Source: an uncultured Chloroflexia bacterium | GTDB taxonomy: Bacteria > Chloroflexota > Dehalococcoidia > DSTF01 > JALHUB01 | Length of the DNA stretch: 64,000 nucleotides | Assembly (NCBI GenBank): GCA_963726245.1 | Contig: CAVSBT010000037.1 | Location: 64,001 to 128,000, forward strand | Direction of reading: 5' to 3' | Shown here: positions 1 through 17,305 of the stretch, in pieces | Numbering within the stretch: position 1 is the stretch's first letter | Layout: each line of letters begins with the position of its first letter | Notes under the pieces: model-generated | Seen by the model: only the letters and a program-made list of their open reading frames with translations | What the model was told of the DNA's origin: nothing | Databases searched by the model: none | Translations under genes and position numbers: made by a program

Positions 1-637
1 GGTAGTCCTCGCCCACCGCCCGTCGCACGGCGCGCAGCACCTCGACGTGAAAGCGCCGGCGTCCTTCGGGCGAGCCGCCCCACTCGTCCGTCCTGTGGTT
101 GGTCAGGGGCGACAGGAACTGGCTCATGAGGTAGCCGTGCGCCGAGTGCAACTGGACGGCATCGAATCCGGCCTCTTTGCCCCGCGCGGCGGCGGCGGCG
201 AAATCGGCCACGGTCGCCTCGATCTCGGCGGCGGTGAAGGCCCGATGGGGAAGCGGATACGACTCGACGTGGGAAGGCGCCAGGGCGACGCGGTCCGGGT
301 CCTGAAGCATCCCTGTCTGCATCCCCGCGTGCGCGATCTGGAGGGCTATCCTGGCGCCGTGGTCGTGGGCGACCCTCGCCAGGCGTCGCAGCCCCGCGAT
401 GTGGCGGTCTTCGGCGGCGCCGTACTGGCCGAGGGCGGCCTTCCCCTGCTCCGAGACGTAGGCATAGCCGGTGACGATGAGGCCCACGCCGCCGCGTGCC
501 AGGCCCTCGAAGAGCTCCACGGAGGCGTCGGTGACCTCGCCGTCGTCGGTCGCCGTGTGGTCCCAGGTGGCGGAGCGCAGGAAACGATTGCGCATCTCGA
601 GTCCGTCGATGGTAATCGGGTCGAAGGGGCTGGTCAT
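1..637 (-). CDS. NADH:flavin oxidoreductase (old yellow enzyme family), 5' part; runs off window
   Basis: Manual translation from ATG at 637: MTSPFDPITIDGLEMRNRFLRSATWD; RBS AAGGGAG upstream; absent from ORF track because it has no stop inside the window. Confidence 0.85.
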   Translation of the reverse strand, partial: MTSPFDPITIDGLEMRNRFLRSATWDHTATDDGEVTDASVELFEGLARGGVGLIVTGYAYVSEQGKAALGQYGAAEDRHIAGLRRLARVAHDHGARIALQIAHAGMQTGMLQDPDRVALAPSHVESYPLPHRAFTAAEIEATVADFAAAAARGKEAGFDAVQLHSAHGYLMSQFLSPLTNHRTDEWGGSPEGRRRFHVEVLRAVRRAVGEDY

Positions 638-671
638 AGTATCTCCCTTGGAATCTAAGAGGGGCCCGGCC

Positions 672-1151
672 TCACGCCTCAGGGCGGGCGAGCTCGTCAC
701 ATATCCTGCTGTCGAGCCAGTCGAAGGCTGCCTGGACCACGGTGTAGGCGCTCTCGTAGTCCTCTTCCCCGATGTCCAGCCCAGCATGCTCGGTGACGTA
801 CGTGCCGGCGTGTACCAGGTTCCTCGTCTTCTGGACCGCCGACGCGTAGTCGCCGACGTCTCCTGGAGCGGCAGGGAGCCATGTCATGTCCTTGCCCACA
901 TCAATTAGCTCGCCCAATGTCCATTTCTGGGGAGGCTTCGGCGCCCCCCTGTTGGTCTTGGGCACTCTGGCGGAGGCTCTCACGTTGTCTACCTGGCATT
1001 CCGCCATGAGAAGAAGCCCCGCCTCAAGCGCCGAGCCGAGCATGACACATCCCGCCAGGTATGCCCCAATCTGCCGGCACCTCTCGGCTTCGGCGCGGTA
1101 GAGGTCTACAAGCCGCCATACTTCCGTTGACTGTCGTGCGTCTGTCTCCAT
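672..1151 (-). CDS. Hypothetical helical protein with HEPN-like RNLVH motif
   Basis: 159 aa; GSALEA...WTLGELID...RNLVH pattern resembles DUF4145/HEPN-type proteins. Confidence 0.55.
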   Translation of the reverse strand: METDARQSTEVWRLVDLYRAEAERCRQIGAYLAGCVMLGSALEAGLLLMAECQVDNVRASARVPKTNRGAPKPPQKWTLGELIDVGKDMTWLPAAPGDVGDYASAVQKTRNLVHAGTYVTEHAGLDIGEEDYESAYTVVQAAFDWLDSRICDELARPEA

Positions 1152-1621
1152 GCTTCATGTCTCCCGTATCAGGTGGTGTGGGTCGCGAGTCAGGCCGCGC
1201 GGGACTCGCGGCGAAGCTCCTAGCGGAGTCCCGCATGTTCCATCGTCATGCTAACACCGGCGCCGGTGTGTGGACCACCTGGGGGGAGCGGGCATCGAGT
1301 CACTCCGCCTGGAGGCCCATCCCACTGCTGCCACAAGAAAGAGGAGCACCCTTGAGCTGGTGACTGGGGTGCTCAAGGGCGCGGGCGAGAGGACTGTGTG
1401 TGCTGGTGGCGGGGATTCATCCTCTCGCTACTAATACATTCGGCTATAACCCACTGTTTCCGTAGTCCCACGAGGATAGCGCAGACGCCGGGTTGAGACC
1501 ACGAATGGACGGTCCCGGAGGCCGCCGCTGGTGTTTCGCGGCAGGCACGCGCCGAGAACGAAGACGGGGCCGCAAAGGCCCGGTCTTGTCTACTGGCGCC
1601 GTCTAGGATATCGATGTCGCC

Positions 1622-1702
1622 TTACTTGGCGCTCGGCCCTTTCTTGGGCTTGTCCTGCTTAGGCTTCTTGACTTTCTTGCCGCCCTTATCCTTGCGTGCC
1701 AT
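1622..1702 (-). CDS. Small Lys-rich peptide (26 aa) MARKDKGGKKVKKPKQDKPKKGPSAK
   Basis: Manual translation; strong RBS GAAGGAGGG just upstream; imperfect hairpin at ~1561-1587 downstream. Confidence 0.55.
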   Translation of the reverse strand: MARKDKGGKKVKKPKQDKPKKGPSAK

Positions 1703-1724
1703 TGTGTCCCTCCTTCAGTTCTCG

Positions 1725-2378
1725 TCAGGATTGTAACAGGAGCCGGAGCCGCAGTCGAAGGGTTTTGACGCGCGGGTCGGCGCGTCGGACGCCGATAGCT
1801 GGATTGCCAACCTTCAGGATGTCCGCGTCACCGGCTTCTACCGGTATGGCGTCCCCCTGGCTCACATCAATGAAGTGAACGGAGAAGGCTCCAGGCTGTG
1901 GAATGTTGGTAGGTGCGGGGGTTGGGGCTACGGCCAGGGCCGTCACACAGACCCACACGGCGTCGAGGAAGTTCACCGTCAACAGGTCGCCGGCTTGCGG
2001 CGCGGCTGAGGAGAAGCCCTGGAATCGGTTCTGGGCAGCGTCGTAACGCCAGATGGACTGCAAGGCGCTGGACGGCTCAATGGCCTCGACCACGCTCTCG
2101 GTCGTCCAACCGGGGTGGGGGTGCCCCACTGGTGTCCGATTGGGGAAGGTGAGCGCGATGTTGTTGCAGCCCTCGTAGAGGGTCTTGGTAGAGCCAGGGG
2201 CCGGAAGTGTTATGGTGGCGACCTGCTGGGCGCTGAGTCGCGCGCTGATCGCCACACCGCCACCGCCTGCCTGCGCCGAGTAAACGCGGCCCGCCGCAGG
2301 CACCGACTCGAACAGGACCGCCCCGACCGTTGCTGCGGCCAGAACCCATCGAACCAGTCTCGTTGATGCACGCATCAC
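1725..2378 (-). pseudogene. Secreted protein with a truncated ComEC/Rec2-like metallo-beta-lactamase domain
   Basis: Signal peptide, PTPAPT linker, then FSVHFIDVSQGDAI (start of a ComEC-type MBL fold) that breaks off before the HxHxDH motif. Confidence 0.55.
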
Positions 2379-2589
2379 GAGCCTCCCCGTATATTCCTGG
2401 CGTCCACGATAGACAGCTCCGTTGGCGGGACGGTCAGAGGCGGGCTGCGTAGGAATATACCACGAATGTCAAGATTCTTCGCCGCGTCGGGGTTGCAGGG
2501 ATCTGCCCGGTTGTTCGCTCCCCTACCGGGACCAGCACGCGTCCGATGAGGGGGATCGGGTGTGGAAATGGTGACTGGCAGAGGACCCT

Positions 2590-2654
2590 TGGTGGGCGAT
2601 GCAGGCCTTGAACCTGCCTGCCGCCCGGCAGGCCTGTGGCCTTCTGGGTGTAGG
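2590..2654 (-). repeat. Degenerate tRNA-Val 3'-half copy R1 (att-like) with 20-bp palindromic insertion
   Basis: TGGTGGGCGATGCAGGCCTTGAACCTG[20 bp]TGGCCTTCTGGGTGTA aligns to 7923-7967. Confidence 0.8.
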
Positions 2655-2760
2655 GCGTTTCGGGGTAAGCGCTCTGCGGCGTCCCTTCGCCCGTATTGTT
2701 CGACACCTTGCGCGGGAGTAGATTGCATTCATGGAAAGTCACCCGAGAGCAAGGAGATAC

Positions 2761-4044
2761 ATGATGAAGCGCTGGACATTCGTCGCACTTATCCTTTTCC
2801 TCATGGCAGCCGGCCTCGTCGTGGCCGGCTGCTCGAGCTCGAAGGACGAAACATCGGGCCCGACGCCCGGCGGTCCGGTTCCCGGCGTCACCGACACCGA
2901 GATCCTGCTGGGGACGCACATGCCGCTGAGCCAATCGCCGGCCTCGGCCTGGGGCGTTGTCGCCGATGGCATGAGGGCCTACTTCGACTACATCAATTCT
3001 CAGGGTGGTATCTACGGCCGCAAGATCAAGCTGCTAGTCGGGGATGACCACTACAGCGCGCCGGACGCGGTGGAAGTCGTGCGGGGCCTGGTGGAGCAGG
3101 ACAAAGTCTTCGCGATCGTGGGCGGCCTCGGCGACTCGTCGCACCTCGCCGTCATGAGCTACCTTGAGGAGAACGGCGTGCCTGACCTGTTCATCGGAGG
3201 CGGCATGCCGGAGTTCACCGATCCCGTCGTGAAGACACGCTTCAGCATGGTGACCGACTACGACACCGAGGGGAAGATCAATACGGACTATATGAAAGAG
3301 CACTTCGCCGGCAAGACGTTAGGCATCATCTACGAGAATAACCAGGGCGGCTCGTTGGGCTTGCAGCGGACCAAGGAGGGATTGGCCGACTCAGACATCA
3401 AGATCGTCTCCGAGCAGGCTTACGATTTCGGGAATTTCGACCTCACTGCGCAGGTGCAGCGCCTGAAGGCCGACAACCCCGAGTTCGTCTACGTGATAGG
3501 GAACCCGGGCTCTCTGGCCAGCGCCTTGAAGGCGGCTCGCGAGACCCTTAGCTGGGATGTGCCGTTCATGACCAGCGCTGTCTCTGCCGTCGAGATGACG
3601 ATTGCGCTCGCCGGAGCCGCCAACGCCGAAGGTCTGATCAGCTTCACAACGGGCAGGATGATCTCTGAGACGGACGATCCGGGCGTGCAGCGCAACATCG
3701 AGCTGATGAAGCAGTTCGCGCCCAACGTCGAGCCGAGCAGCCTGACGGAGTACGGCATAAGCACCGCTGAGTTGGTCGTGCAGGCACTAAAGAACGCCGG
3801 CCCGAACCTCACACGCGAGAGCGTTGTCGATGGGGCGGAGCAGATCCGCGGTTACTGCTGCATCGCTTGCATTGCACCGGTCAACCTCAGCCCGACCGAC
3901 CACCGCCCCGACGAAGCAGAGTGGCCCGAGCAGGTGGTCGACGGGAAGTGGAAGCGCATGTCGGACACGCCGGTGAGCTACGAGTCGACGCCCAGCGACG
4001 TCACCGCGTGCGAGAACGGGGAGCCGGTGAACAAGGGCCAGTAG
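2761..4044 (+). CDS. Branched-chain amino acid-type ABC substrate-binding lipoprotein (orphan)
   Basis: Lipobox VAGC; PGVTDTEILLG...INSQGGIYGRKIKL..DD.Y (Peripla_BP_6-like); RBS AAGGAG; no permease or ATPase adjacent. Confidence 0.9.
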   Translation: MMKRWTFVALILFLMAAGLVVAGCSSSKDETSGPTPGGPVPGVTDTEILLGTHMPLSQSPASAWGVVADGMRAYFDYINSQGGIYGRKIKLLVGDDHYSAPDAVEVVRGLVEQDKVFAIVGGLGDSSHLAVMSYLEENGVPDLFIGGGMPEFTDPVVKTRFSMVTDYDTEGKINTDYMKEHFAGKTLGIIYENNQGGSLGLQRTKEGLADSDIKIVSEQAYDFGNFDLTAQVQRLKADNPEFVYVIGNPGSLASALKAARETLSWDVPFMTSAVSAVEMTIALAGAANAEGLISFTTGRMISETDDPGVQRNIELMKQFAPNVEPSSLTEYGISTAELVVQALKNAGPNLTRESVVDGAEQIRGYCCIACIAPVNLSPTDHRPDEAEWPEQVVDGKWKRMSDTPVSYESTPSDVTACENGEPVNKGQ

Positions 4045-4111
4045 GTTACGCCCTCGGCAACCGTGCCCTCCTAAACCGCGGTTGCGGTGACCTCAGCCGT
4101 GCAGGGTAGCC

Positions 4112-4227
4112 TGGTGAGCGATGCAGGGCTCGAACCTGCGACCTTCTGTGTGTAAAGCATCTGAGCCTGAGCGCTGTGCAACAGATTCAGCACCCCTGAG
4201 CGAAAACGCGGAAGTTATCATCTGGAA
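4112..4227 (-). repeat. tRNA-Val 3'-half copy R2 (4112-4156) plus conserved ~70-bp arm
   Basis: 45-bp match to the tRNA 3' half, then GCATCTGAGCCTGAGCGCTGTGCAACAGATTC...CGAAAACGCGGAAGTTATCATCTGGAA. Confidence 0.9.
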
Positions 4228-4365
4228 CGGGCGACAGTCGAGGTGCAACTAGCATGCCCGACTGGGAATGAGAAGGCCGCCCCTGAGGACGGCCCCTCGG
4301 CCACCTTCTACCCGATCTCCACGTATCAGCCGCCAGGGCACACACGGCCCCGGCAGCAATGGGCG

Positions 4366-4723
4366 CTATTGCTTCGCGTAGTTGCTCGCGCCGTTCCAAT
4401 CTACCAGCGACGACCGGCTCGTTCCCGACGACCCAAGCGTCGTGCCCAGACGGCATCGCCACTACTTCTCCCGGGCCAATCTCGAACTCGGAGCCATCCG
4501 CCATCAGAACGTGAAGGCGGCCCGAGAGCTGGTACTGGAAATGAGGCGCCTCACACCATTCCGTCTTGGCGATCGGCTTCACGTGTTTAGACCATCTCCA
4601 GCCAGGCTCTAGGGTGATCCGGCCGACGGTTCCGCCCCCAATGTTAATGACCTCCAGCCTTCCCTTCTCGAAGGTCCTCGTCTCGTCGGGCGACTTCAGG
4701 TCCTTCCGCTCGTAGCTTGCCAT
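4366..4723 (-). CDS. Cupin domain protein (one apparent frameshift near 4405)
   Basis: PDETRTF...EPGWRWS..VKP..T..C.APH...PSGHDAWVVG; the alternative frame gives VDWNGASNYAKQ*; RBS AGGAGGAG. Confidence 0.85.
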
Positions 4724-4891
4724 CGTCATTCTCCTCCTATGATGCGACGTTCTTGATGCGAACAGTGGGTAGCTTGTCGCTCAGCAGACTAGCGCCCCAT
4801 CTCGTGGCTATCAGCGTGGCCCTCCCGGTTGCAGCGGTCTTCCTGGAGAGATCAGCACAACACTCGACGCGCGGGTGTCTAACCGAAAGAA

Positions 4892-5200
4892 CTAGGAGCT
4901 GTACCTCTTGCCGATCGTCTCCAGTCCCGCCTTCCGGAGGTCTTCCGGAGTCATCGCAATCCGGAACTTCACGGTAGCATTGAAGCTGAGGAAGAATGGC
5001 TCCGCAAGGGCCGGTATCCTTGACGGCTCCGACACGTCAACGATCAGGACCGCCCCGCGAAAGCCATCCCGCTCGGTGAAGTAAACCGCTTCGGGCTTGA
5101 TATCTTCTAGCGCTTGCTGAATCTTTGCGCCGACGGTGCCGTTCCGGGTAAGGGTGTTGAAGGGTTCCACCGGAAAATCGACGAGCATTACCATGCGCAT
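4892..5200 (-). CDS. Small dimeric alpha+beta barrel-type protein (GYD/DUF3303-like)
   Basis: MRMVMLVDFPVEPFN...KPEAVYF...G.RG..LIVD...IPALAEPFF; RBS GGGAGG. Confidence 0.75.
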   Translation of the reverse strand: MRMVMLVDFPVEPFNTLTRNGTVGAKIQQALEDIKPEAVYFTERDGFRGAVLIVDVSEPSRIPALAEPFFLSFNATVKFRIAMTPEDLRKAGLETIGKRYSS

Positions 5201-5489
5201 GATTACGTCCTCCCATTCTGGCGTCCGACTGGCCGCCTCTCCTAAGCGTAGGGGTCGGATGTGAGGGGCACGTGAACGAGAACCGGTGCGCCGTGAAGAA
5301 AGCATGCAGAATGAAAGGTGAGTCGGCGATGGACCGGGGGGATCGGCTATTGGGCCGTTCCAGGCGCAGGCTGGCGGCTGGTTGCACGCTGTAATCCTCC
5401 GGGGTGCAACTGTCGCAGCCTCAAGCGTTCATTGAGTCAGAGAGGGCAGCCATCCCTCATAATCTGGAAAGTGAATCTGTTTGGAGTTC

Positions 5490-5604
5490 TGGTGGGCGAT
5501 GAGGGACTTGAACCCCCGGCCTTCTGTGTGTAAAGCATCTGAGCCTGAGCGCTGTGCAACAGATTCGGCACCCCACCGAAAACGCAGAAGTTATCATCTG
5601 GAAA
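5490..5604 (-). repeat. tRNA-Val 3'-half copy R3 (5490-5534) plus conserved arm
   Basis: 45-bp tRNA 3' half with variant T-stem; arm nearly identical to that of R2. Confidence 0.9.
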
Positions 5605-5674
5605 CGAAGGCTCTGAGACGGCCGCATTCGCCAAGGACCGGCCGTCGTATCGGGGGGAGCTTCTGCCTTATGGG

Positions 5675-7003
5675 CTAGCTTGCCCGCCAGCGCCTCCGGA
5701 CATACCATGCTGCGGCTGCGAGCACGACGAGCGCTGCTGCCGCTACCGCTACGACGACGTACTGCAAAGACGAGGAGCCACCGGCGGCAGACGAGGAGCC
5801 ACCAACGGCAGACGGCGAGCCACCAGCCGCAGACGGGGAGCCACGAACGGCAGATGGCGAGCCACCGGCCGCAGACGGCGAGCCGCCGACGGCAGAGGGC
5901 GAGCTACCGACCGCGGACGGCGAGCGGCTTGGGGCATGGGTAGGCGCGGGGGTTGATGTAGGGGTTGTAGGCGTGTCTTGGATCACCGACACGGTGCCGC
6001 TGCCTTGGTTCGCCACATAGATGCGGTTCGTGTTGGGGTTGACATCTACGGCCGCGGGGAAACTCCCGACCGCCACGGTGGCGACGACCTTGTTGCTGCC
6101 GCCGTCGATGATCGAGACGTTGTTGCTGTTCATGTTCGCCACGTAGATGAGGTTTGTGTTGGGGTTGACGGCCACGCTTTCGGGGCCGGTCCCAACCGCT
6201 ACGGCGGTGATGACCGTGTTGGTGGTGCCGTCGATGACGGAGACGTCGTTGCTGGCAAAGTTCGTCACGTAGATGCGGTTCGTGTCGGGGTTGACGGCTA
6301 CACTGGAAGGGTTAGTCTCGACAGGCACGGTGGCGACGACCGAGTTGGTGGCGCCGTCGATGACGGAGAGGTCTTTGCTGCCATAGTTCGTCACGTAGAT
6401 GTGGTTCGTGTTGGGGTTGACGGCCACGGCCAAGGGGAAACTCCCAGCCGCTGCGGTGGCGACGACCGTGTTGTTGGCACCGTCGATGACGGAGACGTTG
6501 TGCTGCCATATTCGGCGCGTAGATGAGGTTCGTGTTGGGATTGACGGCCACGCGCTGGGGGTAGCCATATTGGACCGCTACGGTGGCGACGACCGTGTTG
6601 CTGCCGCCGTCGATGACGGAGACGTTGTGCTTGTGCCACCGTTCGCCACGTAGATGTGGTTCGTGTTGGGGTCGACGGCCACGCCGTAGGGCATGGTGCC
6701 GACCACTATGGTGGCGACGACTGTGTTGCTGCCGCCATCGATGACGGAGACGTTGCCGCTGTCATAATTGGTCACAGTATTGGGCACGTAAATAAGGTTC
6801 GTGTTAGGATTGACGGCCACGCCGTCGGGCTTAGTCCCAACTGCTACGGTGGCGACCACCACCGGGCCGCCGCTGGCGCCGGCCGTTGGGGCCTGGCCGC
6901 CATGCGCGGAGATGATGCCTGCGCCCAAGGTGGCGATAAACGCAAGTAACAGCAAGTGAGGAAGGGTGGCTGTCTGAGCTTCTCGGGGACCGGCAAGGCG
7001 CAT
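5675..7003 (-). CDS. YVTN/YncE beta-propeller repeat surface protein with C-terminal TM anchor (frameshifted ~6500-6630)
   Basis: About 7 repeats of VAVNPNTN.IYV.N..S..VSVIDG; signal peptide; S/G/A linker; TM helix plus RRRWR tail; RBS AAGGAGG. Confidence 0.85.
5775..5921. repeat. Intragenic 21-bp tandem repeat x7 encoding a SPSA(V/A)GG linker
   Basis: GAGCCACCNNCGGCAGACGGC-like units. Confidence 0.85.
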
Positions 7004-7174
7004 CTGCAACCTCCTTGTTGGCACGGCCAGGCAGACATTTCAGAAACGAGCCACAAGCGCGGCAAGTATAGCGTTGTCCAAGCGTTTGTCAACCCTCTCC
7101 CCTGGACTGTGGTGATCTTGAGGCACGGAGGTAAACGGAAGTCAGAAGCTGGAAAGCGAATCTGGAGGGGGTTC

Positions 7175-7291
7175 TGGTGGGCGATGAGGGACTTGAACCC
7201 CCGACCTTCTGTGTGTAAACCATCTGGCGGTAAACGCTGTGCAACGGAATCGGGATGGGTGACCGAAAACGCGGAAGTTATCAGCTGGAAA
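7175..7291 (-). repeat. tRNA-Val 3'-half copy R4 (7175-7219) plus conserved arm
   Basis: 45-bp tRNA 3' half, then CCATCTG...CGCTGTGCAAC...CGAAAACGCGGAAGTTATCAGCTGGAAA. Confidence 0.9.
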
Positions 7292-7402
7292 ATGGGGCAT
7301 TAGTCGAGACTGCGACTAGTACCAGTGGAAGCTCTGCGCGATGGGGAGCGACGAGACAGCGTCGCCAGGGGACGATGGCGATTTAAGCAGGCGCATTTGC
7401 CG

Positions 7403-7430
7403 TTGACAGTCGGTGCATATGCATTACAAT
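7403..7430 (+). promoter_or_regulatory. sigma70-type promoter with palindromic spacer
   Basis: TTGACA-N16-TACAAT; spacer contains TGCATATGCA. Confidence 0.6.
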
Positions 7431-7496
7431 GCCGTCATCGGAAAGGGCTGGTACGGGCACTGCTTGGCCCGGGGGCGGGAGAACAAGGAGGGGTCA

Positions 7497-7796
7497 GTGC
7501 TGTTCGCAGACATCTACACCTACAAGGGGAACTTGGGCGAGGAGGACCAGAGGCGCATAATCAACCTCTTCACCAATTGGGCACCACCTGCCGGCGTAGA
7601 GATCAAATCGCACTACGAGTTTGCAGACGGCTCAGGCGGCCTCACCATCTCGGAGGTGTCGACGCCCGCCGCGCAGTACGAAGCATGCGCCGCCTGGTCC
7701 GCCTTCATGGACCAGAGGATAGTGCCGCTGCTCGATGTCACGGAATCCGTCCCTCTCGCAATGAAGGTAGGCGCCTGGCGGGATTCTGTGCGCTAG
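7497..7796 (+). CDS. DUF3303-like protein
   Basis: GTG start after AAGGAGGG; F..W.PPAGVEIK.HY.FADG.GG pattern. Confidence 0.75.
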   Translation: MLFADIYTYKGNLGEEDQRRIINLFTNWAPPAGVEIKSHYEFADGSGGLTISEVSTPAAQYEACAAWSAFMDQRIVPLLDVTESVPLAMKVGAWRDSVR

Positions 7797-7922
7797 TACC
7801 GAAGGGGTCAGTCAGCCTCGTCACCGAGTCACATGGGGTTGGGCCGCGGTCCGGCCCTTTCCGTTTCCAGGCTGTGGCTGAGGACGAGCCGTCCGGGTTC
7901 AGGCTAGAACCGGAGGTGGTTC

Positions 7923-7999
7923 TGGTGGGCGATGCAGGACTCGAACCTGCGCCCTTCTGTGTGTAAAACAGACGCTCTTGCCAACTGAGCTAATCGCCC
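7923..7999 (-). tRNA. tRNA-Val(TAC)
   Basis: GGGCGATTAGCTCAGTTGGCAAGAGCG-TCTGT-TTTACAC-ACAGA-AGGGC-GCAGG-TTCGAGT-CCTGC-ATCGCCC-ACCA; full cloverleaf with encoded CCA. Confidence 0.97.
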
Positions 8000-8018
8000 A
8001 CCCGCTGAGGGCAAGTGA

Positions 8019-8048
8019 ATCCTAGGCCAATCGAGCCGGGCCGGTCAA
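8019..8048 (-). promoter_or_regulatory. Putative tRNA-Val promoter
   Basis: TTGACC-N18-TAGGAT on the minus strand, ~20 nt upstream of the tRNA. Confidence 0.45.
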
Positions 8049-8098
8049 GGCGAGACGCAGCCCCACGTAGCGGCCACGCCTCTTCGCTGTCGTCAAAG

Positions 8099-9286
8099 CT
8101 AGAAGATGCCAGTCAGAGCCGCGTACACACCGAATCCCGAGGTGGCCGCCAGCGTCAACCCCACCAGGACGGAGTAGGCTCTCCCGAGACGGTAGGGCTC
8201 CGGGAGCGCCTTTATGGCCAGCAAGAAGAGAAACCCCAGCACGTTGGGGAGGAGGAGTGCGTTCAGCACCTCGACGGCCACGGCGACCTTCACCAGGTTG
8301 GCGCCCGCCAGGATCACGCCGGCGCCGAGCAGAAGACCCGCGGTGTAGACGCCATAGAACCACGGCGCTTGGCGAGGTCGATGCTCCAGCGATCGCTTGT
8401 AGCCTGCCGCCTCACCCAGTCCCCAAGCAGCGGTGATCGATACCACGATGGCCCCCAGCAGAGCGCCGCCACTCACACCCAGGGCGAAGAGCACGCGTCC
8501 GGCAACCCGGCCCAGGTACGGAGTCATGGTGGCGGAGATGTGCTGAACCGAGTCCAGCGCGCCGTGGTCACTCGCCGAGCCGATTGTCGCCGCTGCAGCC
8601 ACCAGGATCGCGCACATGATGAGTTGGGTGGTCAGCGCGCCCAGCGCGGTGCCCAGGCGACCCCGCCCCAGATCCTCCCGCCGCAAACCCTTGTCCGCCA
8701 CCGCCGACTGCTGAAAGAAGATCATCCAGGGCATGACTACGGCCCCAATGTTGGCGGCAGCGAGGTATAGGTAGCTGGAGTCGGAGATCGGGATGGAGAC
8801 CGAGCCTCGAGCCAGATCGCCCACATCAGGGTGGGCCTGCCAGGCAACCGCCACAAAGGCCAGCTCAAAGGCGCCGATCGCCAGTGCTACCCGCTCCACT
8901 GAGCCGTAGGAGCCGGACCAGACGATCGCCAGCATGAGCAAGACGGCGGCAGGCACGGTGACAGCCGTTGGCACGCCGAAGAGGAGGCCGACCCCGGCCA
9001 GCCCGCTCAGCTCGGTAAGCAGGGCCCCGATGCAGGCGACGGTCAGCGCCGAGACCGAGAGCCAGGCCCAGCCTGCCCCGAAGCGATCGCGGATCAGTTC
9101 AGCGTAGCCGCGGCCGGTGGCGATCCCGAGCCGAAGGGTCAGCTCCTGGGCGATGAACAGGATGGGGATCAGGACCAACTGCAGACCGAGCAGTCGGTAT
9201 CCCCATTGGGCCCCGCTCTGCGCAGCGGTGATGATGCTGCCGGCCTCAGTGTCGGCAAGCATGACCACCAGGCCGGGTCCGAGCAC
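8099..9286 (-). CDS. NRAMP/MntH-family divalent metal transporter
   Basis: GPGLVVMLADTEAGSI..AAQSGA.WGY; IGAVVMPWMIFFQQS; many TM helices; true start uncertain. Confidence 0.9.
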   Translation of the reverse strand: MLGPGLVVMLADTEAGSIITAAQSGAQWGYRLLGLQLVLIPILFIAQELTLRLGIATGRGYAELIRDRFGAGWAWLSVSALTVACIGALLTELSGLAGVGLLFGVPTAVTVPAAVLLMLAIVWSGSYGSVERVALAIGAFELAFVAVAWQAHPDVGDLARGSVSIPISDSSYLYLAAANIGAVVMPWMIFFQQSAVADKGLRREDLGRGRLGTALGALTTQLIMCAILVAAAATIGSASDHGALDSVQHISATMTPYLGRVAGRVLFALGVSGGALLGAIVVSITAAWGLGEAAGYKRSLEHRPRQAPWFYGVYTAGLLLGAGVILAGANLVKVAVAVEVLNALLLPNVLGFLFLLAIKALPEPYRLGRAYSVLVGLTLAATSGFGVYAALTGIF

Positions 9287-9499
9287 CCATAGCCAGGTGC
9301 GGACGCTTGCGCGGCGCCGCTTGGGATCTGCCGCAGGCGAATCTAGCTGGACGATGGTGCGGTTACCCGTCCCTAAGGGTACGTGTTAGTAATGACTCAC
9401 ACAAGCCTCCAAGACCACCCGACCCCGCTGAGGCAGACGCCGAGCGAATGCAGATCGACCCCGCTACCGTGTTGTCGCTGGTTTTGGTCGTAGCTCGCG

Positions 9500-9850
9500 G
9501 ATGCGGCTGAGCAAGAAGACGTGGTAGTCCATGGAGAGGCCGAACAGGATGGCGAACAGGAAGATGAGGCAGCCAGGCCTCGATGCTCCGCACCGCTGGA
9601 ACCCGAGCAGGCCGGCGCCGAGGCCGTGCTGGGTGACCAGCACGAGCAGCCCGTAGGCGGCGCCGACGGAGAGCAGGTTCATGATGACGCTTTGATCGGC
9701 ACCACGATCGACCGGAAGATGACCAGCAGAGGATGAAGCTGAAGCTGAGCACGAAGAGCGAAGACGATGGGCGTGTATAGACGACAGCATGGCGAAGCCA
9801 TGAGGTTGCGCGATGTCGCCGCCGACGAGCACCGCTGGCCGGCACACCGC
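9500..9850 (-). pseudogene. MMPL/RND transporter C-terminal remnant
   Basis: IMNLLSVGAAYGLLV...LFAILFGLSMDYHVFLLSR; short and frame-disrupted. Confidence 0.7.
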
Positions 9851-10575
9851 GAAGGCGTGGAACGTAGTACTCGTAGCCTCCGCCGCGTCTTGAGGCGTGG
9901 TTGCTGTTGGCATCTGCTGACGGGATCTCACGAAGGCCAGGTCTCCGTGGCGTTCGCCTCGTAGGTCGGAGTGCGAAATATGGATCGCGGCGAGGATGGA
10001 TTGAGGCGCTGGACCCGTTGAACCGCGTCGAGTTCACGGGTATCGATAACGACTGCGCGGCGAGATCAGGCGGCGTGAACTCCTGTTCAGTGTAAGGAAG
10101 GCTTGCTTCGCGGAAGGCTGTGGGCAGGGTGCTACGCCGGAGAATCCGGTGTTGATGTTGAAGTAGGGTATGGCGGAGGAAAGGGGCGCGACGAAATTAT
10201 AGCGGGTGGCGCGTCACGTGCGCAGGCGTCTTAGAACCGCCGGAGCTGCTCGGAACGCGGTTTGGTTGCGCTGGATGAATTGAATGCGATTTTAGTTGAC
10301 TTTGTCGCTTAGCAGATTTATCACGGTTGGTAGCAGGGTTAGCGACGTTGCTATCGTTGCGCTCGCGATCAATACTGGTACTGATGGCGATGCTGGTCGT
10401 CTCACGGCACGGGACTATCCGATTCCACCGGGCGGACGCTCAGGCCCGCCCTGGGCCCGGTCAAGGCGAGCGACCCGGCTCTCCGAGTGACGCAGCCGCC
10501 CTAAGCGGCTACACTGGCTCCGCACTTGCCTGACGGCGGGCGGGCCCGCCTGCCATTCCGCATCCGGAGGGTCTC

Positions 10576-12067
<1,492 letters not shown>

Positions 12068-12078
12068 GGCCCCGGGTG

Positions 12079-12176
12079 CTTCGACAGGCTCAGCATGCCA
12101 TATGGCCTGCCTTCGCTACCGGCAGCCCATTCAGCAGCCTGAGCTTGTCGAAGGGCGTCCTGAGCGCGCCGAAGGG
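12079..12176. repeat. CTTCGACAGGCTCAG-family REP-like cluster (also ~14152, 17281, 38385, 38409)
   Basis: CTTCGACAGGCTCAG plus inverted copies CCTGAGCTTGTCGAAGGG. Confidence 0.75.
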
Positions 12177-12217
12177 TCGAACCACGAGCGGCCCGCCAGG
12201 GCTAGATGAGCAGCGCT

Positions 12218-12877
12218 TCAGGGCTTGGCGGAGGGAGCCGTCTCCGTCTCCTCATGGTCCACGACGAGCTTGCTGCCGTTCCAGCGGTAGAAGGTGTGGT
12301 GTAGCTGGCTGGGACAGCAGAGGGGGTCCTCCGGGGCGTAGAGAGGCTCCGTATCCACCAGCACGCCGTCCTGGACGGCGACCGTGACCCGTCCGGCCGC
12401 CGGCTTCACCTCCAAGAGCTCCTTCAGGTCGCCCCCGCGATAGCCGAAGACGGCGTAGGCGATGGTGCCGCCGGTGCCGCCGGAGCTGATGGGCACCACC
12501 GCCTCATCAACTCCGTCGCCGGTCAGATCAGCGAAGATGATCTGCTGGGCGACCAGGCGGCCGCCGCTATCCTGCAGCAGGGCCTTCACGGCCGCCACCT
12601 GCGAGAAGTCCACCTCGCTGATGCCGCCATCGGGGACGGCCGTCTCCGCGGCGGCCGTTTCCGTGGGCTCGGGCTCCGACGAGGGTGAGGCCGAGGCCGC
12701 GGATACGCCCGTGGCCTCCGGCTCCTGGCTGCCGCCGTTGTCGCAGGCGGTCACCGCCAGGGCAATCCCGACCAGCAGCAGGCCCGCCGCCCACAACCGC
12801 AGATCGAGACGCCTTCCCTCGCGGCGGCGCCTGAAGGCACCGGCCGGCGCTCGTTCATCCCCCCCGGCGCGGCCCAT
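12218..12877 (-). CDS. LppP/LprE-like lipoprotein
   Basis: Lipobox VTAC; [13 protein letters not shown]; Y.P.DPLCCPS...YRWNG. Confidence 0.7.
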
Positions 12878-13954
12878 CAAGAGACGTCGCCCTCCCACAC
12901 GTTGTTGGCTGGATTAGCGTCTGTCGGCTCCGTCATCGCCGCAATCACGCGCACATGCGTCCCCGGCGGCGCCAGGACGCCCACGACCTCGACCGTGTCG
13001 AAGCCAAGGGGCTCGATGGTGAGCTGGTAGGTAGACGCGGTCGTGGGCTCCGGCGCACCCCCAACATAAACCGTGACCACGACCGTGACCTGCACCGCCG
13101 GAGCGCTGGTAGGATTCTGAATCACCACCAGCAGGCGGTTCGTTTCGGGGGAGCGGAAGACGCCGTGAACCGCCAGGTCGAGGGCGACATCGGGCGCGAG
13201 CTGCTTGGCCAGGCCGTTGTTTCCGTCATCCTCCTCAGGGATGAGGTTGGTGGAGTCCGCGACGACCAGCACGAGCTCCGGCCGGTAGATCACCTGGTCT
13301 TGAAGGAGGATGCGCACGTTGGCGCCCGGCGGCAGGGCGTCGGTGAGGGTCACGGCCTCCGCCACCACGCCGCGAACCAGGAACTCGATCTTCTGGCCGG
13401 CCGGCACTGTGCTGTGCCCCTCGTTGCCCAGGAGCACGCCCAGGACATCATTGGACACGAACGTGTCAAGCACCACGAGGTCGGGCAGCACAGGAGGCGG
13501 CGTCGGCGTCGACGTGGGCTGCGGCGTCAACGTCGGCGGATGCGGGAGTGACCGTGCCCGCCGGCTGCGTGGGCGACGGCAGCGCCGGCGTTTGACCGGG
13601 CGACGGCGTCTGGCCTGGGAGCAGCGTGGGCGCCGGCCCCGGCGTCGCGGTGTCCTCCGGCGGCGGAGTCGTCTCCGGCGTCTCCTCGGGAGGCACGCCG
13701 CTGGTGGGCGTCTCCGTCTCCGCTGCGGGCGTGACGGCAGACGGTGTCTTGCTCGGCGTGCCCGTGCCGGCGGGGGTACCCGCACGGGCTGTGCGGGTGA
13801 CGGTGGTGGTACGGGAAGCGGGTGTGCGGGTGGGAGAGCCGACGACGCTGGGTCCACTCTCGCTTCCGCCGCAGAAGGCGAGGACGAGAGCAGCCAGGGC
13901 GGCCCCGGCAACGAGGGCCACCAACGAGCCGATGAGCGGCCAGCGCAGGGTCAC
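12877..13954 (-). CDS. Exported Pro/Thr-rich protein with CARDB-like Ig domains (frameshift ~13530)
   Basis: N-terminal TM helix, PT linker, PDLVV...N.I.E.D..NN motif. Confidence 0.7.
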
Positions 13955-14213
13955 GGAAGGCTCCCCCTCAGGGCTCTCCCAGGTCGGGCGGGCGACCCCT
14001 GTCCCGATCGTGGAAGCCTACCTCGCCACCACGTCGCAGCATAGTCCCGAAAGACCCTCTTGGCAAGATGCGCCTATAGATGGGCACAGACAGAGACAGA
14101 TTCTGTGGCGGTCCACCAGAGTGCTGACAAGGCTGGGTGCGCCGCTCCTGGTTCGACAGGCTCACCATGAGCGGCACCTGAGAACGCTCGTCTGGCCTGT
14201 CGAAGCGGCGGCG

Positions 14214-15210
14214 CTACCCTGAAACCGCCTCAGGGTTGACGAGGTTGGCCGGCTTCTCTCCGCGCAGGACGGAGAGAATGGCGTCCGCCGCCATGTCCGC
14301 CATCCGGCGGCGCGTGGCGACGCTGGCGCTGCCGACGTGCGGCGTCAACGTCAGGTTATCGAGCTCCAGGAGCGGGTCGCCGGGCGGCACCGGCTCCACC
14401 TCGGCCACGTCCAGGCCCGCGCCGGCGATGCCGCGGGAGCGGAGGGCCTCGCAGAGGGCCTGCTGGTCCACGACGCCGCCGCGCGAGGTGTTGATGAGGA
14501 TGGCGTCGGGCTTCATCAGGCCCAGCTCTCGGCGGCCGATGAGGTGGCGGGTCTCGGCGGTGAGCGGCACGTGTAGCGTCACGAAGTCGGACTCTCGCAG
14601 GAGCGTGTCCAGGGGCACGAAGCGGGCGCCCAGCTCCGCCTCCAGCTCCTCTCGACGCTGTCTGCCGCAGTAGAGGAGGCGCATGGCGAAGCCGCGGGCC
14701 CGGCGGGCTACGGCGCGGCCGATGGCCCCCAGCCCGACGATGCCCAGGGTGGCGCCGTAGACGTCGTGCCCCAGGAGGAACGAGGGGTGCCAGGTGGGCC
14801 AGCCGCCGCTGCGGGCCAGGCGGTCCCCTTCCACGACTCGACGCGCCGCCGCCAGCAAGAGGGCGAAGGCGAGATCGGCCGTGGTCTCCGTGAGGACGCC
14901 GGGGGTGTTCGTCACCAGCACACCGCGAGCGGTGGCAGCCGCCACGTCGATGTTGTCGTAGCCCACGGCCATGTTGCTGACGATGCGCAGTCCGGGGCGC
15001 GCCATCGAGGAGCGCGGCGTCGACGCGATCCGTGAGGAGCGTGAGCAGGGCGTCGGCGCGGGCGGCGCGGCGCAGGAGCTCCTCCCGAGGTGGCGGCTCC
15101 TGGTCGGGCCAGACCTCAACCTCGGCGGCGGGACGCAGCCTCTCGACGGCGTCGCCGGGCAGCTCGCGCGTGACGAACACGTAGGGGCGAGCGGACGCTT
15201 CAGCGGTCAT
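14214..15210 (-). CDS. D-glycerate dehydrogenase/glyoxylate reductase (frameshift ~15000)
   Basis: AVGYDNID, NTPGVLT, GIVGLGAIG, LHVPLT.ET, INTSRG, PHVGSA. Confidence 0.92.
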
Positions 15211-15235
15211 CGAGTGCTTCAGCGTCAGGGGCGCG

Positions 15236-15508
15236 CTAGCTCCGCCAGAACTGCCACCACTTTCGCGGCTCCGGGGCGGCAGGCGGCGCCGCCTCCCGCG
15301 ACGGCTCCGCGGCCATGGACGGCGGCGCCGGCGCCTCGGCGGGCGCCTCTTCGACGGCGCCGAGGAACTTCGCCGGCTCGGCGTCGAACCGCTCCTTGCA
15401 CCCGACGGCGCAGAAGTAATAGGTGACGCCCTCGTAGTCGGAGGTGGCCGCCGCCTCCTTCGGGTCGATCTCCATGCCGCAGACCGGGTCCTTCACTAGA
15501 TCAGCCAT
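15236..15508 (-). CDS. YHS domain protein
   Basis: KDPVCGM...YYFCAVGCKERF. Confidence 0.9.
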   Translation of the reverse strand: MADLVKDPVCGMEIDPKEAAATSDYEGVTYYFCAVGCKERFDAEPAKFLGAVEEAPAEAPAPPSMAAEPSREAAPPAAPEPRKWWQFWRS

Positions 15509-15577
15509 ACCAGCCTCCCTTCTGGCCACTCGCTGAGGCCAACGCATGCCGCGGTTGATTTGCTGTTGCCGGTACGC

Positions 15578-16042
15578 TCAGCAGCCCGCACGACGCTCGG
15601 CCTCGCGCTTTGTATGTCTGAGGCCACCGTCGATCGCCTTCTGGAGCGCCTTCCGCATGCGGCCCTTGAAGGTGCTTGCGATAAGCCCTTCCCACGACTC
15701 TTCGGTGCGAAGTCGCGTGGTGCCTTCCGACGGCAGCAGCTCCCACACGTGCACGGCTCTTATGCCCATCGTCCTGCCCGTCCAGGCCAACAGTCGCGGA
15801 CTCTCGACAGCTCGAAAGGTGGATCTGATGAGCCCTGGGCCTGCCTTCCAACTGAACTGGGTCCCAGGCGCCACTGCTCCAGCAATCTTGGCCGACCGCA
15901 CATCTGGATTCCAAGTCGGCCACGCCTCAATGTCCGTGATCAATTGCCAGATCAGTTCTGGAGATGCCTTGATTTCGATCTCGCCCTCCGCAACAACAGG
16001 AGCATTCTTGTTGACCGCAGACTCGGCCCTTCCGCTGGTCAT
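15578..16042 (-). CDS. SRPBCC/polyketide cyclase family protein
   Basis: IEIKASPELIW.LITDIEAWP.WNP. Confidence 0.85.
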   Translation of the reverse strand: MTSGRAESAVNKNAPVVAEGEIEIKASPELIWQLITDIEAWPTWNPDVRSAKIAGAVAPGTQFSWKAGPGLIRSTFRAVESPRLLAWTGRTMGIRAVHVWELLPSEGTTRLRTEESWEGLIASTFKGRMRKALQKAIDGGLRHTKREAERRAGC

Positions 16043-16214
16043 TGTCCCTCCTCAACACACCGCCCCCTCCCCCAGAAAACCTCGCATCCGGCCGCCATTA
16101 TACACCGGCCGGGTAGAGGGCGGCCCCTTACCCCTCTGGCCCCGTGATGGGAACCCGCTTCAAACATCGCAGGCGGTTTGCAGAGGCGGGTGCATGTGGT
16201 AGTTTGTTGGCGCC

Positions 16215-17305
16215 GTGAGCGTCTTCCTCAACCTGTGGGAGCCCGTCTACGTCCGCCGTCGCGTGCTGATGCGGCTGGCGATCAGCGCCATCCTGGTGGG
16301 CGTCCTGATCTGGCGCGTCAACATCGGCGCCGCCCTCAGGACCCTCACCCACGTGGACTATATCTACGCCCTCCCCGCCCTCGCCCTCTTCACCCTGGCG
16401 AAGCTGGTCTTCTCCGTACGCTGGCGTGTGATGCTCACGCGGCTGGGCCAGCCGTCGGCCCGCGGCCTCTTCGGCATCATGCTCGTCTCGAACATGGCGA
16501 ACAACGTCCTGCCCCTCCGTCTGGGCGACGTGCTGCGCGTGCAGGTGTCGGCGCAGCGCTTCGGCATCTCCCGCTCCGGCCTCGCGTCCAGCGTCTTCGT
16601 CACCGAGACGCTTCTCGATGGCGTCACCTTCGCCGTCCTGGGGCTGGTCGGGCTGGCGCTGCTGGATATACCGCAGAGCCTCAGAGACTTCCTCTGGGCG
16701 ATGATCGGCGGCGCGGCAGTTGGCCTGCTCTTGGCCGTTCTCGGCGCCCACATCTCGGTGCCCCAGGGCTGGAAGCCGGGTCGATGGCTGGGCTGGCTGC
16801 CGCCAAGGGCGCGCCAGGGCGTCGCCGACATCTTGCCGCCGTTCGTGGAGGGCATGGCGGCGCTGCGCCACCCCTGGATGGGCACCCAGGTGCTGGTCCT
16901 CTCCTTCACGGGCTGGCTCCTGGAGGGGGTGATGTTCTGGCTCTTCGGCCTCGGCTTCGGGCTGCATCTCTCCTTTGGGTCCTACCTGGTGATCATGATC
17001 GCGACCAACATGGTCATCTCCGTGCCGCTGGCGCCCTCCAACGTGGGGCCCTATGAGGTGGCCGTGGCCGAGGTCGTGACTCTCCTGGGCGTGACGCGCT
17101 CGCTGGCGGAGGCTATGCCATCGCCACCCACCTGCTGAACATCCTGTGGGTGAGCCTCACAGGCGTCATAGCGATGTGGCTACTCGGCCTGCGCTTCCAG
17201 GACATCTTCTACCTGCGCGCCCAGGCCAGTCCGCCGCGGCGGGCTCCCACCCGCATCACAGGGGACGAGAATGCGGAGCCCCCTTCGCCAGGCTCAGGGT
17301 GCTGA
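16215..17305 (+). CDS. Lysylphosphatidylglycerol synthase TM-domain (UPF0104 flippase-like) protein (frameshift ~17110)
   Basis: RW..L, NNVLP.RLGDVLR, P.APSNVGPYE. Confidence 0.85.

Follow-up and report, generated by a model that had tools for sequence, protein, structure and literature searches.

Conserved arms beside displaced tRNA-Val fragments as candidate attachment-site ends of small cassettes in uncultured Dehalococcoidia

The stretch of DNA analysed here, referred to as the window, comprises 64,000 nucleotides (nt) of an uncultured Chloroflexota bacterium of the class Dehalococcoidia (contig CAVSBT010000037.1, positions 64,001 to 128,000; here contig C37), and contains a tRNA-Val gene that is preceded by a row of displaced tRNA fragments, most of them followed directly by a conserved non-tRNA sequence of about 70 nt, which we call the arm. 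The genome concerned (G000) is a 2.68-Mb metagenome-assembled genome (MAG) in 46 contigs, with 83% completeness and 6% contamination. An earlier note on this DNA, made from the letters alone, had described conserved arms on both sides of a tRNA-derived core and had read them as candidate recombinase-binding ends of mobile cassettes served by one dedicated machinery. We describe the anatomy of the locus, the conservation and distribution of the arm, and comparisons of the cassettes between genomes, and weigh the explanations that may account for them.

Anatomy of the tRNA-Val locus

ARAGORN found a single tRNA gene, tRNA-Val(TAC), at 7923-7999 on the minus strand (Rfam tRNA score, 74.4 bits), and a repeat search identified five copies of its 3' end, all in the same orientation, at 2590, 4112, 5490, 7175, and 7923, the last of which lies within the intact gene. 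The four displaced fragments to the left of the gene (R1 to R4) measure about 45 nt each and extend from the CCA-side end across the T-arm as far as the anticodon loop (...CCTTCTGTGTGTAAA); direct repeats of the tRNA 3' part that flank the intervening elements, with an intact gene at one end, are the arrangement by which tRNA-targeting elements are recognized. Directly after the fragments at 4112, 5490, and 7175 stand arms of about 70 nt that do not resemble the tRNA 5' half, and the repeat search returned the three copies at the places where the earlier note had seen them. Fragment and arm together form three 128-nt copies (4100-4227, 5478-5605, and 7163-7290) that are, without gaps, 69-77% identical to the reference copy. 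A 27-mer from the arm tail had 3 matches in the 64-kb window as compared to 0 in 100 dinucleotide-preserving shuffles when up to 3 mismatches were allowed. The features of the locus, from left to right, are as follows.

2590-2654, minus strand: R1, presumably the oldest displaced tRNA-Val 3' fragment, with a hairpin insert of about 21 nt (repeat search, alignments; the variant recurs in other genomes)
2655-2730, no strand: decayed arm with an internal deletion, ahead of the binding-protein cargo (alignment with G009 and G011)
2731-4044, plus strand: cargo 1, periplasmic solute-binding protein (Peripla_BP_6; Pfam E 1.6e-52), the usual far-end cassette of such arrays
4112-4156, minus strand: R2, displaced tRNA-Val 3' half, CCA-side end to anticodon loop (repeat search, alignment)
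4157-4227, no strand: arm copy 1, of the consensus type (71/71 identical to one G009 copy, 70/71 to the G009 copy that adjoins the binding-protein gene)
4187-5305, minus strand: cargo 2, a weakly cupin-like open reading frame (ORF; 4187-4729, its last codons entering the arm; Cupin_2 E 9.6e-5, under the curated cut-off) and a 137-aa ORF without assignment (4892-5305)
5462-5489, no strand: cassette 2, left-end motif (CTGGAAAGTGAATCTG...GTTC) directly against the following fragment (sequence, alignment, flank survey)
5490-5534, minus strand: R3, displaced tRNA-Val 3' half with a variant T-stem (GAGGG/CCCCC on the plus strand; repeat search, alignment)
5535-5604, no strand: arm copy 2 (repeat search, alignment, tail scan)
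5675-7024, minus strand: cargo 3, a beta-propeller gene of the NHL/YncE type, split in two ORFs, with internal repeats of 126 nt and 21 nt (repeats, ORFs, Pfam)
7136-7174, no strand: left-end motif of cassette 3 (CGGAAGTCAGAAGCTGGAAAGCGAATCTGG...GTTC; repeat search, alignment, flank survey)
7175-7219, minus strand: R4, displaced tRNA-Val 3' half with the same T-stem variant as R3 (repeat search, alignment)
7220-7335, no strand: arm copy 3 (7220-7291) and its conserved extension ATGGGGCATTAGTCGAGACTGCGACTAGT... (7292-7335), which is frequent in copies elsewhere (alignments)
7413-7796, plus strand: cargo 4, a DUF3303 protein (E 1.7e-12) with its own promoter-like and terminator-like sites
7923-7999, minus strand: intact tRNA-Val(TAC), the putative growth point of the array (attB side; ARAGORN, Rfam)

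The copy at 2590 departs from the others. Alignment resolved the decayed trace that had been noticed after 2654 into a fragment interrupted by the hairpin of about 21 nt and, behind it, an arm that has lost an internal part; an arm truncated in the same way stands upstream of the homologous binding-protein gene in a complete related genome (G009), and a longer, decayed arm holds that place in a second relative (G011). Fragments that carry an extra G+C-rich hairpin (such as CCTGCCTACCGGCAGGCAGG) in the position of the variable region, resembling the long arm of a class II tRNA, form a sub-family common to several genomes (window 2590-2654, the end of contig C42 at bases 1-108, L014, L030, L047, and others). 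The T-stem of R3 and R4 is unlike that of the present tRNA-Val gene.

On the other side of the core, the motif CTGGAAAG(T/C)GAATCTG...GTTC precedes the fragments at 5490 and 7175, and TGGAAA lies at 2563-2568, before the fragment at 2590. The direct repeat around the core turned out to be longer than the CTGGAAA first noticed; the word common to the left side and the arm tails is CGGAAGTYA-N4-CTGGAAA, found at 7136 on the left and at 4209, 5585, and 7272 in the arm tails. The inverted pair described at R3 is likewise present (GAATCTGT at 5473-5480 and ACAGATTC at 5559-5566). Elsewhere in the MAG, the arm was found only at the cut end of a 4.8-kb contig (C42), which carries different cargo and terminates inside an arm, a break expected where a repeat interrupts assembly.

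The cargo genes of the window are mutually unrelated and lie on both strands. Good promoter-like sites of their own were found for two of them, at 7092-7065 on the minus strand for the beta-propeller gene and at 7403-7430 for the DUF3303 gene, which is also followed by a terminator-like site (7835-7858); none was found inside the arms. As to the beta-propeller gene, its two ORFs cover 5675-6568 and 6578-7024, the 126-nt spacing of its repeats slips to 124 and 131 nt mid-gene, and 21-nt repeats in series make up its C-terminal part (5747-5946). The split may reflect either decay of the gene or an assembly fault in the repeats.

Character and distribution of the arm

Consensus sequences were derived from alignments of 44 units and of 45 arms. 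The arm consensus reads GCATCTGAGCCTGAGCGCTGTGCAWCAGATTCAGCACCCCTGAGCGAAAACGCGGAAGTTATCATCTGGAAA, which in many copies continues into ATGGGCCATTAG.CGCGACTGCGACTAGT and about 30 further conserved bases; by a strict pattern, the start of this extension was recognized in 29 of the 105 distinct arm copies. CCTGAGCG occurs twice in the arm. The arm is not coding sequence, the alternative that the earlier note had raised: copy lengths differ by 1-2 nt (72, 71, 70, 73 ...), and variability is spread equally over the three codon phases (0.109, 0.109, and 0.103).

Another explanation would make the arm, by itself or joined to the tRNA 3' half, either a gene for a structured RNA or a single-strand hairpin like attC, and would fit a unit that ends, in the tRNA sense, in a T-arm and acceptor strand; in a minority of arms a local TTCGG...CCGAA stem is also possible. 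This stem is absent from the commonest arm form, and RNAalifold, applied to the 45 arm copies on both strands, returned 2 pairs, 0 of them covarying (-0.34 and -0.09 kcal/mol), that is, no consensus structure. An Rfam 15 scan of positions 1-12,000 of the window found no arm match at E<=1, its only hits being the tRNA and two chance-level matches elsewhere, and the arms hold no promoter-like site. We therefore regard an RNA or hairpin function as largely refuted and barely tenable. The covariation check that the earlier note had proposed thus favours simple motif conservation, and as there is neither a coding nor a folding signal, the arm appears to be conserved as a DNA word, which points to protein binding. 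Variant arms that go with a GAATCTG left end, and would reveal any covariation of GAATCTG with the CAGATTC of the arm in the same cassette, were few.

The left side of the core is conserved less regularly, and here the earlier note's account of conserved flanking motifs stands for the arm side while the left-side motif is not universal. Of 89 distinct flanks to the left of a fragment or tRNA gene, about 25-28 have GGAAGTYAGAGTSTGGAAAGYGAATCTGGAAGGGGTTC directly against the fragment, judged by eye and with the two of the window included, about 17 represent the 3' flank of the binding-protein gene, and the others vary; as a stricter pattern recovered the motif in 8 of 97, its frequency depends on how it is defined. 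The word GGAAGTYA-N4-CTGGAAA, a candidate arm-type repeat, stands on both sides of the core in direct orientation, its left copy being present in only about a third of cassettes. Five loci (L051, L093, L129, L050, and L063) have a short piece of tRNA acceptor end (CATGGTGGGCGATCAAAG) about 40 nt upstream of the left-end motif, possibly a scar left where an older junction collapsed.

In a sample of 101 related genomes, which for the arm count includes the window's own genome and the unpublished G045, the arm was found in 16, with 77-100% identity. Ten of the 17 genomes of the same family carry it. Two other families of the order have it in 3 of 36 and 2 of 16 genomes, and a fourth family has it in none of 21. 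When about 185,000 species, each represented by a single genome, were scanned for an exact pattern, 10 assemblies gave matches, amounting to 23 stretches spread over 12 contigs, and all of these assemblies are Chloroflexota/Chloroflexia/Dehalococcoidia MAGs; the same pattern matched 52 stretches of metagenome contigs and 0 of viral contigs. The complete genome G009 has 12 arms: a row of five ends at tRNA-Val(TAC), another row, of three, has no tRNA gene, and four arms stand singly. Arrays that adjoin an intact tRNA-Val(TAC) were also found in seven other genomes (G011, G012, G014, G015, G010, G002, and G021).

Across the 105 distinct copies the arm is tied to tRNA-Val junctions, and the survey did not find it widespread away from them. 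A contiguous tRNA-Val 3' half lies directly to the left of the arm in 64 copies and an acceptor-end motif within 90 nt in 70, and the orientation of the arm relative to the 3' half is almost always the same. Among the remaining copies, several with intermediate scores and an acceptor motif appear to be the hairpin-insert variant. Three copies in G009 that seemed to lack a fragment were considered as insertions at secondary (pseudo-)sites, an idea given up when they were read base by base and proved to carry decayed or variant tRNA-Val-like remains; because of this decay they were not used to map the crossover.

Cassettes compared between genomes and a proposed origin

Fifty-five complete cassettes, counted from an arm to the next fragment, measure 517-2494 nt. 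Three of those in the window have homologues in relatives, and in G011 they recur in another order. The binding-protein cassette is 88.9% identical to its counterpart in G009 over 1556 nt and 80.7% identical to that in G011 over 1468 nt. The cassette of the 137-aa ORF (4894-5344) matches G011 at 81% over 453 nt and is found there across the binding-protein cassette, on its other side; the DUF3303 cassette matches G011 at 81% over 698 nt, and lies next to the tRNA gene in the window but is separated from it by further units in G011. By contrast, the next 20 kb of the chromosome show only scattered matches to these two genomes, with 66-77% identity for the long ones. Within G009 and between genera, identity is 92-100% for arms that stand ahead of unrelated cargo; for example, the arm at R2 matches a G009 copy in 70 of 71 positions (98.6%) despite the unrelated cargo behind it, while the binding-protein gene beside this arm is 89.6% and its 3' spacer 80.8% identical to G009. 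Junctions are polymorphic as well. G016 and G009 have in common a 1.25-kb block of 91% identity that ends in a diverged tRNA-Val-like fragment (...CTGCGTGATAGGCA), past which G016 continues with an arm and G009 with unrelated DNA, so that the two genomes part exactly at the boundary between fragment and arm. In four metagenome runs, many contigs leave the window sequence at 4224-4227 with differing continuations, which fits a common arm with varied cargo and, given short contigs from mixed communities, amounts to a weak hint; across the runs surveyed, at most 0.25 of the words sampled from the stretch were present in any one of them. Joints seen in metagenome contigs were also considered as excision products and set aside, as they come from short mixed-community contigs at 90% likeness and mostly have extra letters between the two sides.

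We consider it probable that the arms are the attP-derived ends of integrative elements that targeted tRNA-Val and are now mostly without an integrase, and that positions 2590-7999 represent an accretion array resembling cis-mobilizable elements (CIMEs). Four small elements would have entered successively by site-specific recombination at tRNA-Val(TAC). The attP of each incoming circle would have consisted of a left end, with the motif of about 40 nt (GGAAGTYAGAGTSTGGAAAGYGAATCTGG..GTTC) that about a third of the cassettes carry, the tRNA 3' half, bounded by the CCA-side end and the anticodon loop, and an arm portion of 70-130 nt, GCATCTGAGCCTGAGCGCTGTGCAWCAGATTCAGCACCCCTGAGCGAAAACGCGGAAGTTATCATCTGGAAA(ATGGGCCATTAG.CGCGACTGCGACTAGT). 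Crossover would have occurred somewhere in the 45-nt block of identity, the edge of which suggests the anticodon loop. Each integration would rebuild the tRNA from the copy of the element and displace the previous 3' half, now before a new arm, from the gene, and hence every internal junction should read left end, fragment, arm. Repeated integrations would thus produce a row in which the oldest and most decayed copy (R1) lies farthest from the gene, and the variant T-stem of R3 and R4 fits an origin in the attP of earlier incoming elements. The arm itself would be a protein-binding region at the DNA level, the P'-arm side of attP, sharing GGAAGTTA-N4-CTGGAAA directly with the left end; candidate binding sites are this word on both sides, CCTGAGCG at its two places in the arm, and CATCTG / CAGAT. 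Cassettes that lack a recombinase gene may be moved in trans by an enzyme encoded elsewhere or may be resting remnants of the cis-mobilizable type. The earlier note's view of the arms as attachment arms of mobile cassettes, and not as tRNA, coding sequence, or RNA, is therefore well supported, while binding by a recombinase and a single dedicated machinery are points that we only infer; the same degree of caution applies to a tyrosine integrase, which may act at or near the anticodon loop, and to mobility of the cassettes at the present day.

Several observations weigh against this reading. Elements moved by a tyrosine integrase carry its gene inside them, as a rule beside one att site; no recombinase was found among the 17 ORFs scanned in positions 1-17,138 of the window, and 0 of 96 ORFs of at least 120 aa within 2 kb of metagenome arms matched PF00589 at E<=1e-5. 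In the MAG, itself 83% complete, the PF00589 matches are two Xer-like tyrosine recombinases (on C25 and C26) and one split gene (on C46), and G010, also 83% complete, holds only two tyrosine recombinases. The tandem ssrA islands of Dehalococcoides have been attributed, in the account of them in PMC3146451, to a large serine recombinase and not to a tyrosine integrase, and for this reason an enzyme of either class may be involved. With regard to the sites, the left-end motif was not seen in about two thirds of cassettes, many of which may thus lack a complete site, and the attP-type junction (CTTCTG-N9-CATCTG) does not have the inverted symmetry of the tRNA-side anticodon stem, which makes any placement of the crossover tentative. 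Finally, the DUF3303 cassette and its G011 homologue are 87% identical in cargo but only 69% identical in the arm, and arms are thus not uniformly better kept than the cargo.

Part of this evidence would also suit fossil scars, that is, old site-specific entries with no present function, the similarity of which is due to recent descent, homologous recombination, or gene conversion. The missing integrase in or near the cassettes, the absence of the left motif from about two thirds of them, and the poorly kept DUF3303 arm are all in line with such scars, as are the decay and the common deletion in R1 and its counterparts in G009 and G011. Such scars sit badly with arms before unrelated cargo that are far more alike than chromosomal genes, with common cassettes that are ordered differently between genomes, and with two genomes that part exactly at an arm boundary, and we judge fossil scars to be unlikely.

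The search for an enzyme also bears on a host-serviced locus, in which a chromosomal recombinase, either XerC/D-like or a serine recombinase found across the order, would capture and shuffle cassettes in the manner of an integron integrase. The fact that the array-bearing G000 and G010 have only Xer-like tyrosine recombinases agrees with this, as does the attribution of the ssrA islands in PMC3146451, and a 471-aa large serine recombinase (C6:18911-20326 in G000) is present as a single copy in 90 of the 101 genomes, including all listed arm-bearing genomes but G071. Against it, both enzymes occur in most arm-less genomes, neither adjoins the array, and G000 and G010 are incomplete; a host-serviced locus is therefore rather improbable. 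As the arm-specific enzyme the 471-aa protein was rejected, its presence in 90 genomes not being specific to those with arms. Its full-length matches across the order have 54-92% identity, a single-copy conservation that is unusual for a family normally tied to mobile elements; contig C24 holds a second, frameshifted copy of the C6 serine recombinase region (97-99%), which fits the 6% contamination or a strain mixture.

In other genomes, the nearest integrases are those of tRNA-Pro and tRNA-Phe islands or members of a multi-copy family of 310 aa. A member of the latter is found at a distance of 1.2-1.3 kb from an arm in both G002 and G016, and the family was considered as the cognate integrase. 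It occurs in 40 of the 101 genomes as compared to 16 with the arm, in 9 of the 16 arm-bearing genomes and not, as far as was found, in the arm-rich G012; a fragment-like core within 2.5 kb upstream was present for only 3 of 7 copies. As a multi-copy block of about 1 kb in varying contexts, it remains a weak lead only. This block (L076:12662-13594 in G009; also L074, L075, and L077-L080) extends from its own TTGACT promoter to the stop codon between unrelated flanks, reaches up to 9 copies per genome besides many fragments, and has the appearance of an independent mobile unit; a gene for a large serine recombinase stands 1.4-3 kb from the 310-aa recombinase in G009 and in G011.

Among the 96 metagenome ORFs near arms, 12 were Peripla_BP_6 and three Rep_trans (PF02486), and the latter raise the possibility that the arm is the cis site of a Rep_trans protein, a double-strand origin or an oriT-like nick region of cassettes that replicate or are mobilized as rolling circles, and not a site bound by a recombinase. 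Rep_trans proteins are described as rolling-circle initiators and MOBT relaxases (PMC6499999, PMC7563843, and PMC5714925), and the three contigs (L084, L099, and L116) have a like layout, with a fragment, an arm, a small ORF on the opposite strand, and the Rep_trans gene about 0.9 kb to the right of fragment and arm; their Rep_trans proteins have 71-84% mutual identity and 44-45% identity to that of G009, and the sequence covered stops before the far end of the cassette and before any integrase. Such genes are, however, limited to 3 of the 101 relatives and 3 of 93 genomes of the order, in none of which they adjoin an arm; the arm also does not have the conserved hairpin usual at such origins, and its being locked to the edge of a tRNA fragment is a better fit to a recombination site. 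We thus hold an origin or nick site to be very unlikely. No relatives of the Rep protein were found in viral contigs.

A CIME is understood to derive from, and to move with, a related element in which the integrase is encoded. In G009, a related 5.7-kb element (L139:6484-12302) with an integrase and a Rep_trans gene targets tRNA-Gly(TCC), not tRNA-Val. It is bounded by a 32-nt repeat of the tRNA 5' part up to the anticodon loop, and besides the Rep_trans protein it encodes an Mrr-like nuclease, a Zn-ribbon protein, and, adjoining the tRNA, an Xer-type integrase of 315 aa; the pair of integrase and Rep genes is also found in G086 and G051. Autonomous integrative elements of the right general type therefore exist in the lineage for another tRNA. 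A second repeat, of the tRNA-Gly 3' half, lies 2.2 kb downstream of the element.

Should the array be in use today, the tRNA-Val locus of soil, peat, and sediment Dehalococcoidia might be a standing, integron-like platform for gene capture, with self-promoted cassettes of about 1 kb, conserved ends of about 200 bp, exchange between genera, and a recombinase external to the cassettes, such as a chromosomal Xer-like or serine enzyme or a rare Rep_trans helper, that inserts, excises, and reorders them. This is a speculative picture to which we give little credence.

Comparison with known systems

If attP-derived ends of tRNA-Val-targeting elements are indeed what the arms represent, an uncultured lineage of Dehalococcoidia would swap single accessory genes between genera through one small site beside tRNA-Val, and the swapped cargo would include a solute-binding protein, beta-propeller proteins, and proteins of unknown function. 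The conserved arm provides a ready marker for such cassettes in metagenomes and bait for their recombinase, and in annotation an array of arms explains both the tRNA-Val pseudo-fragments and the contig breaks at the locus. A single search of open-access full text for Dehalococcoidia, tRNA-Val, and genomic islands gave no account of this locus among the papers listed. As far as the sources discussed below describe them, CIMEs, tycheposons, and the ssrA islands of Dehalococcoides already embody the principle, which limits the general surprise.

Despite its outward likeness to one, the array is no integron. Small cassettes of unrelated cargo, set in order and bounded by conserved recombination ends, recall those of integrons, but neither strand of the 45 aligned copies holds an attC-like hairpin, the cassettes run in both directions with promoter-like sites of their own, and the array is headed by a tRNA gene and not by an attI site beside intI, with no tyrosine recombinase adjoining it among the ORFs scanned in positions 1-17,138. 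With respect to IMEX, elements that use XerC/D at a dif-like core of 28 bp bound by the two proteins, the comparison covered the presence of the two Xer-like genes in the MAG.

A closer model is offered by CIMEs and their accretion, as defined, with ICESt1 and ICESt3 of Streptococcus thermophilus, in the relevant part of a review of integrative and mobilizable elements (PMC5704250). By that definition, tandem elements at a tRNA 3' end are separated by att repeats, and att sites are kept while the genes for integration and transfer are lost, both of which hold for the cassettes seen in the window and in metagenomes. Compared to the CIMEs described there, the elements discussed here are many and very small, with one or two genes in 0.5-2.5 kb, their conserved ends are long (70-130 nt plus about 40 nt) and common across genera, and no co-resident integrase-bearing element was found in any array examined here.

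Tycheposons of Prochlorococcus, as the portion of bioRxiv 10.1101/2020.12.28.424599 devoted to their integration presents them, similarly integrate at tRNA genes and leave partial tRNAs behind; successive integrations push older elements inward, degenerate remnants and further partial tRNAs are scattered about, and the cargo is adaptive or of unknown function. While tycheposons are defined by an integrase, a tyrosine or large serine recombinase, in company with replication genes, the cassettes reported here have no recombinase and, in only 3 metagenome cases, a replication-type gene (Rep_trans), and their host belongs to a different phylum.

On the evidence of the sections of PMC3146451 that deal with them, the ssrA islands of Dehalococcoides are the nearest taxonomic parallel. 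They occur in the same class of bacteria, lie in tandem downstream of a small RNA gene with direct repeats of its 3' end, and have a conserved motif beside the repeat. Their repeat measures 20 bp, and a 540-aa serine recombinase, DsiB, encoded in a six-gene module, is proposed to act on it, whereas the target here is tRNA-Val, the 45-nt repeat reaches the anticodon loop, and no such module is present. Fifteen of the Dehalococcoides islands are themselves without an integration module and are discussed in the same source as possible CIMEs.

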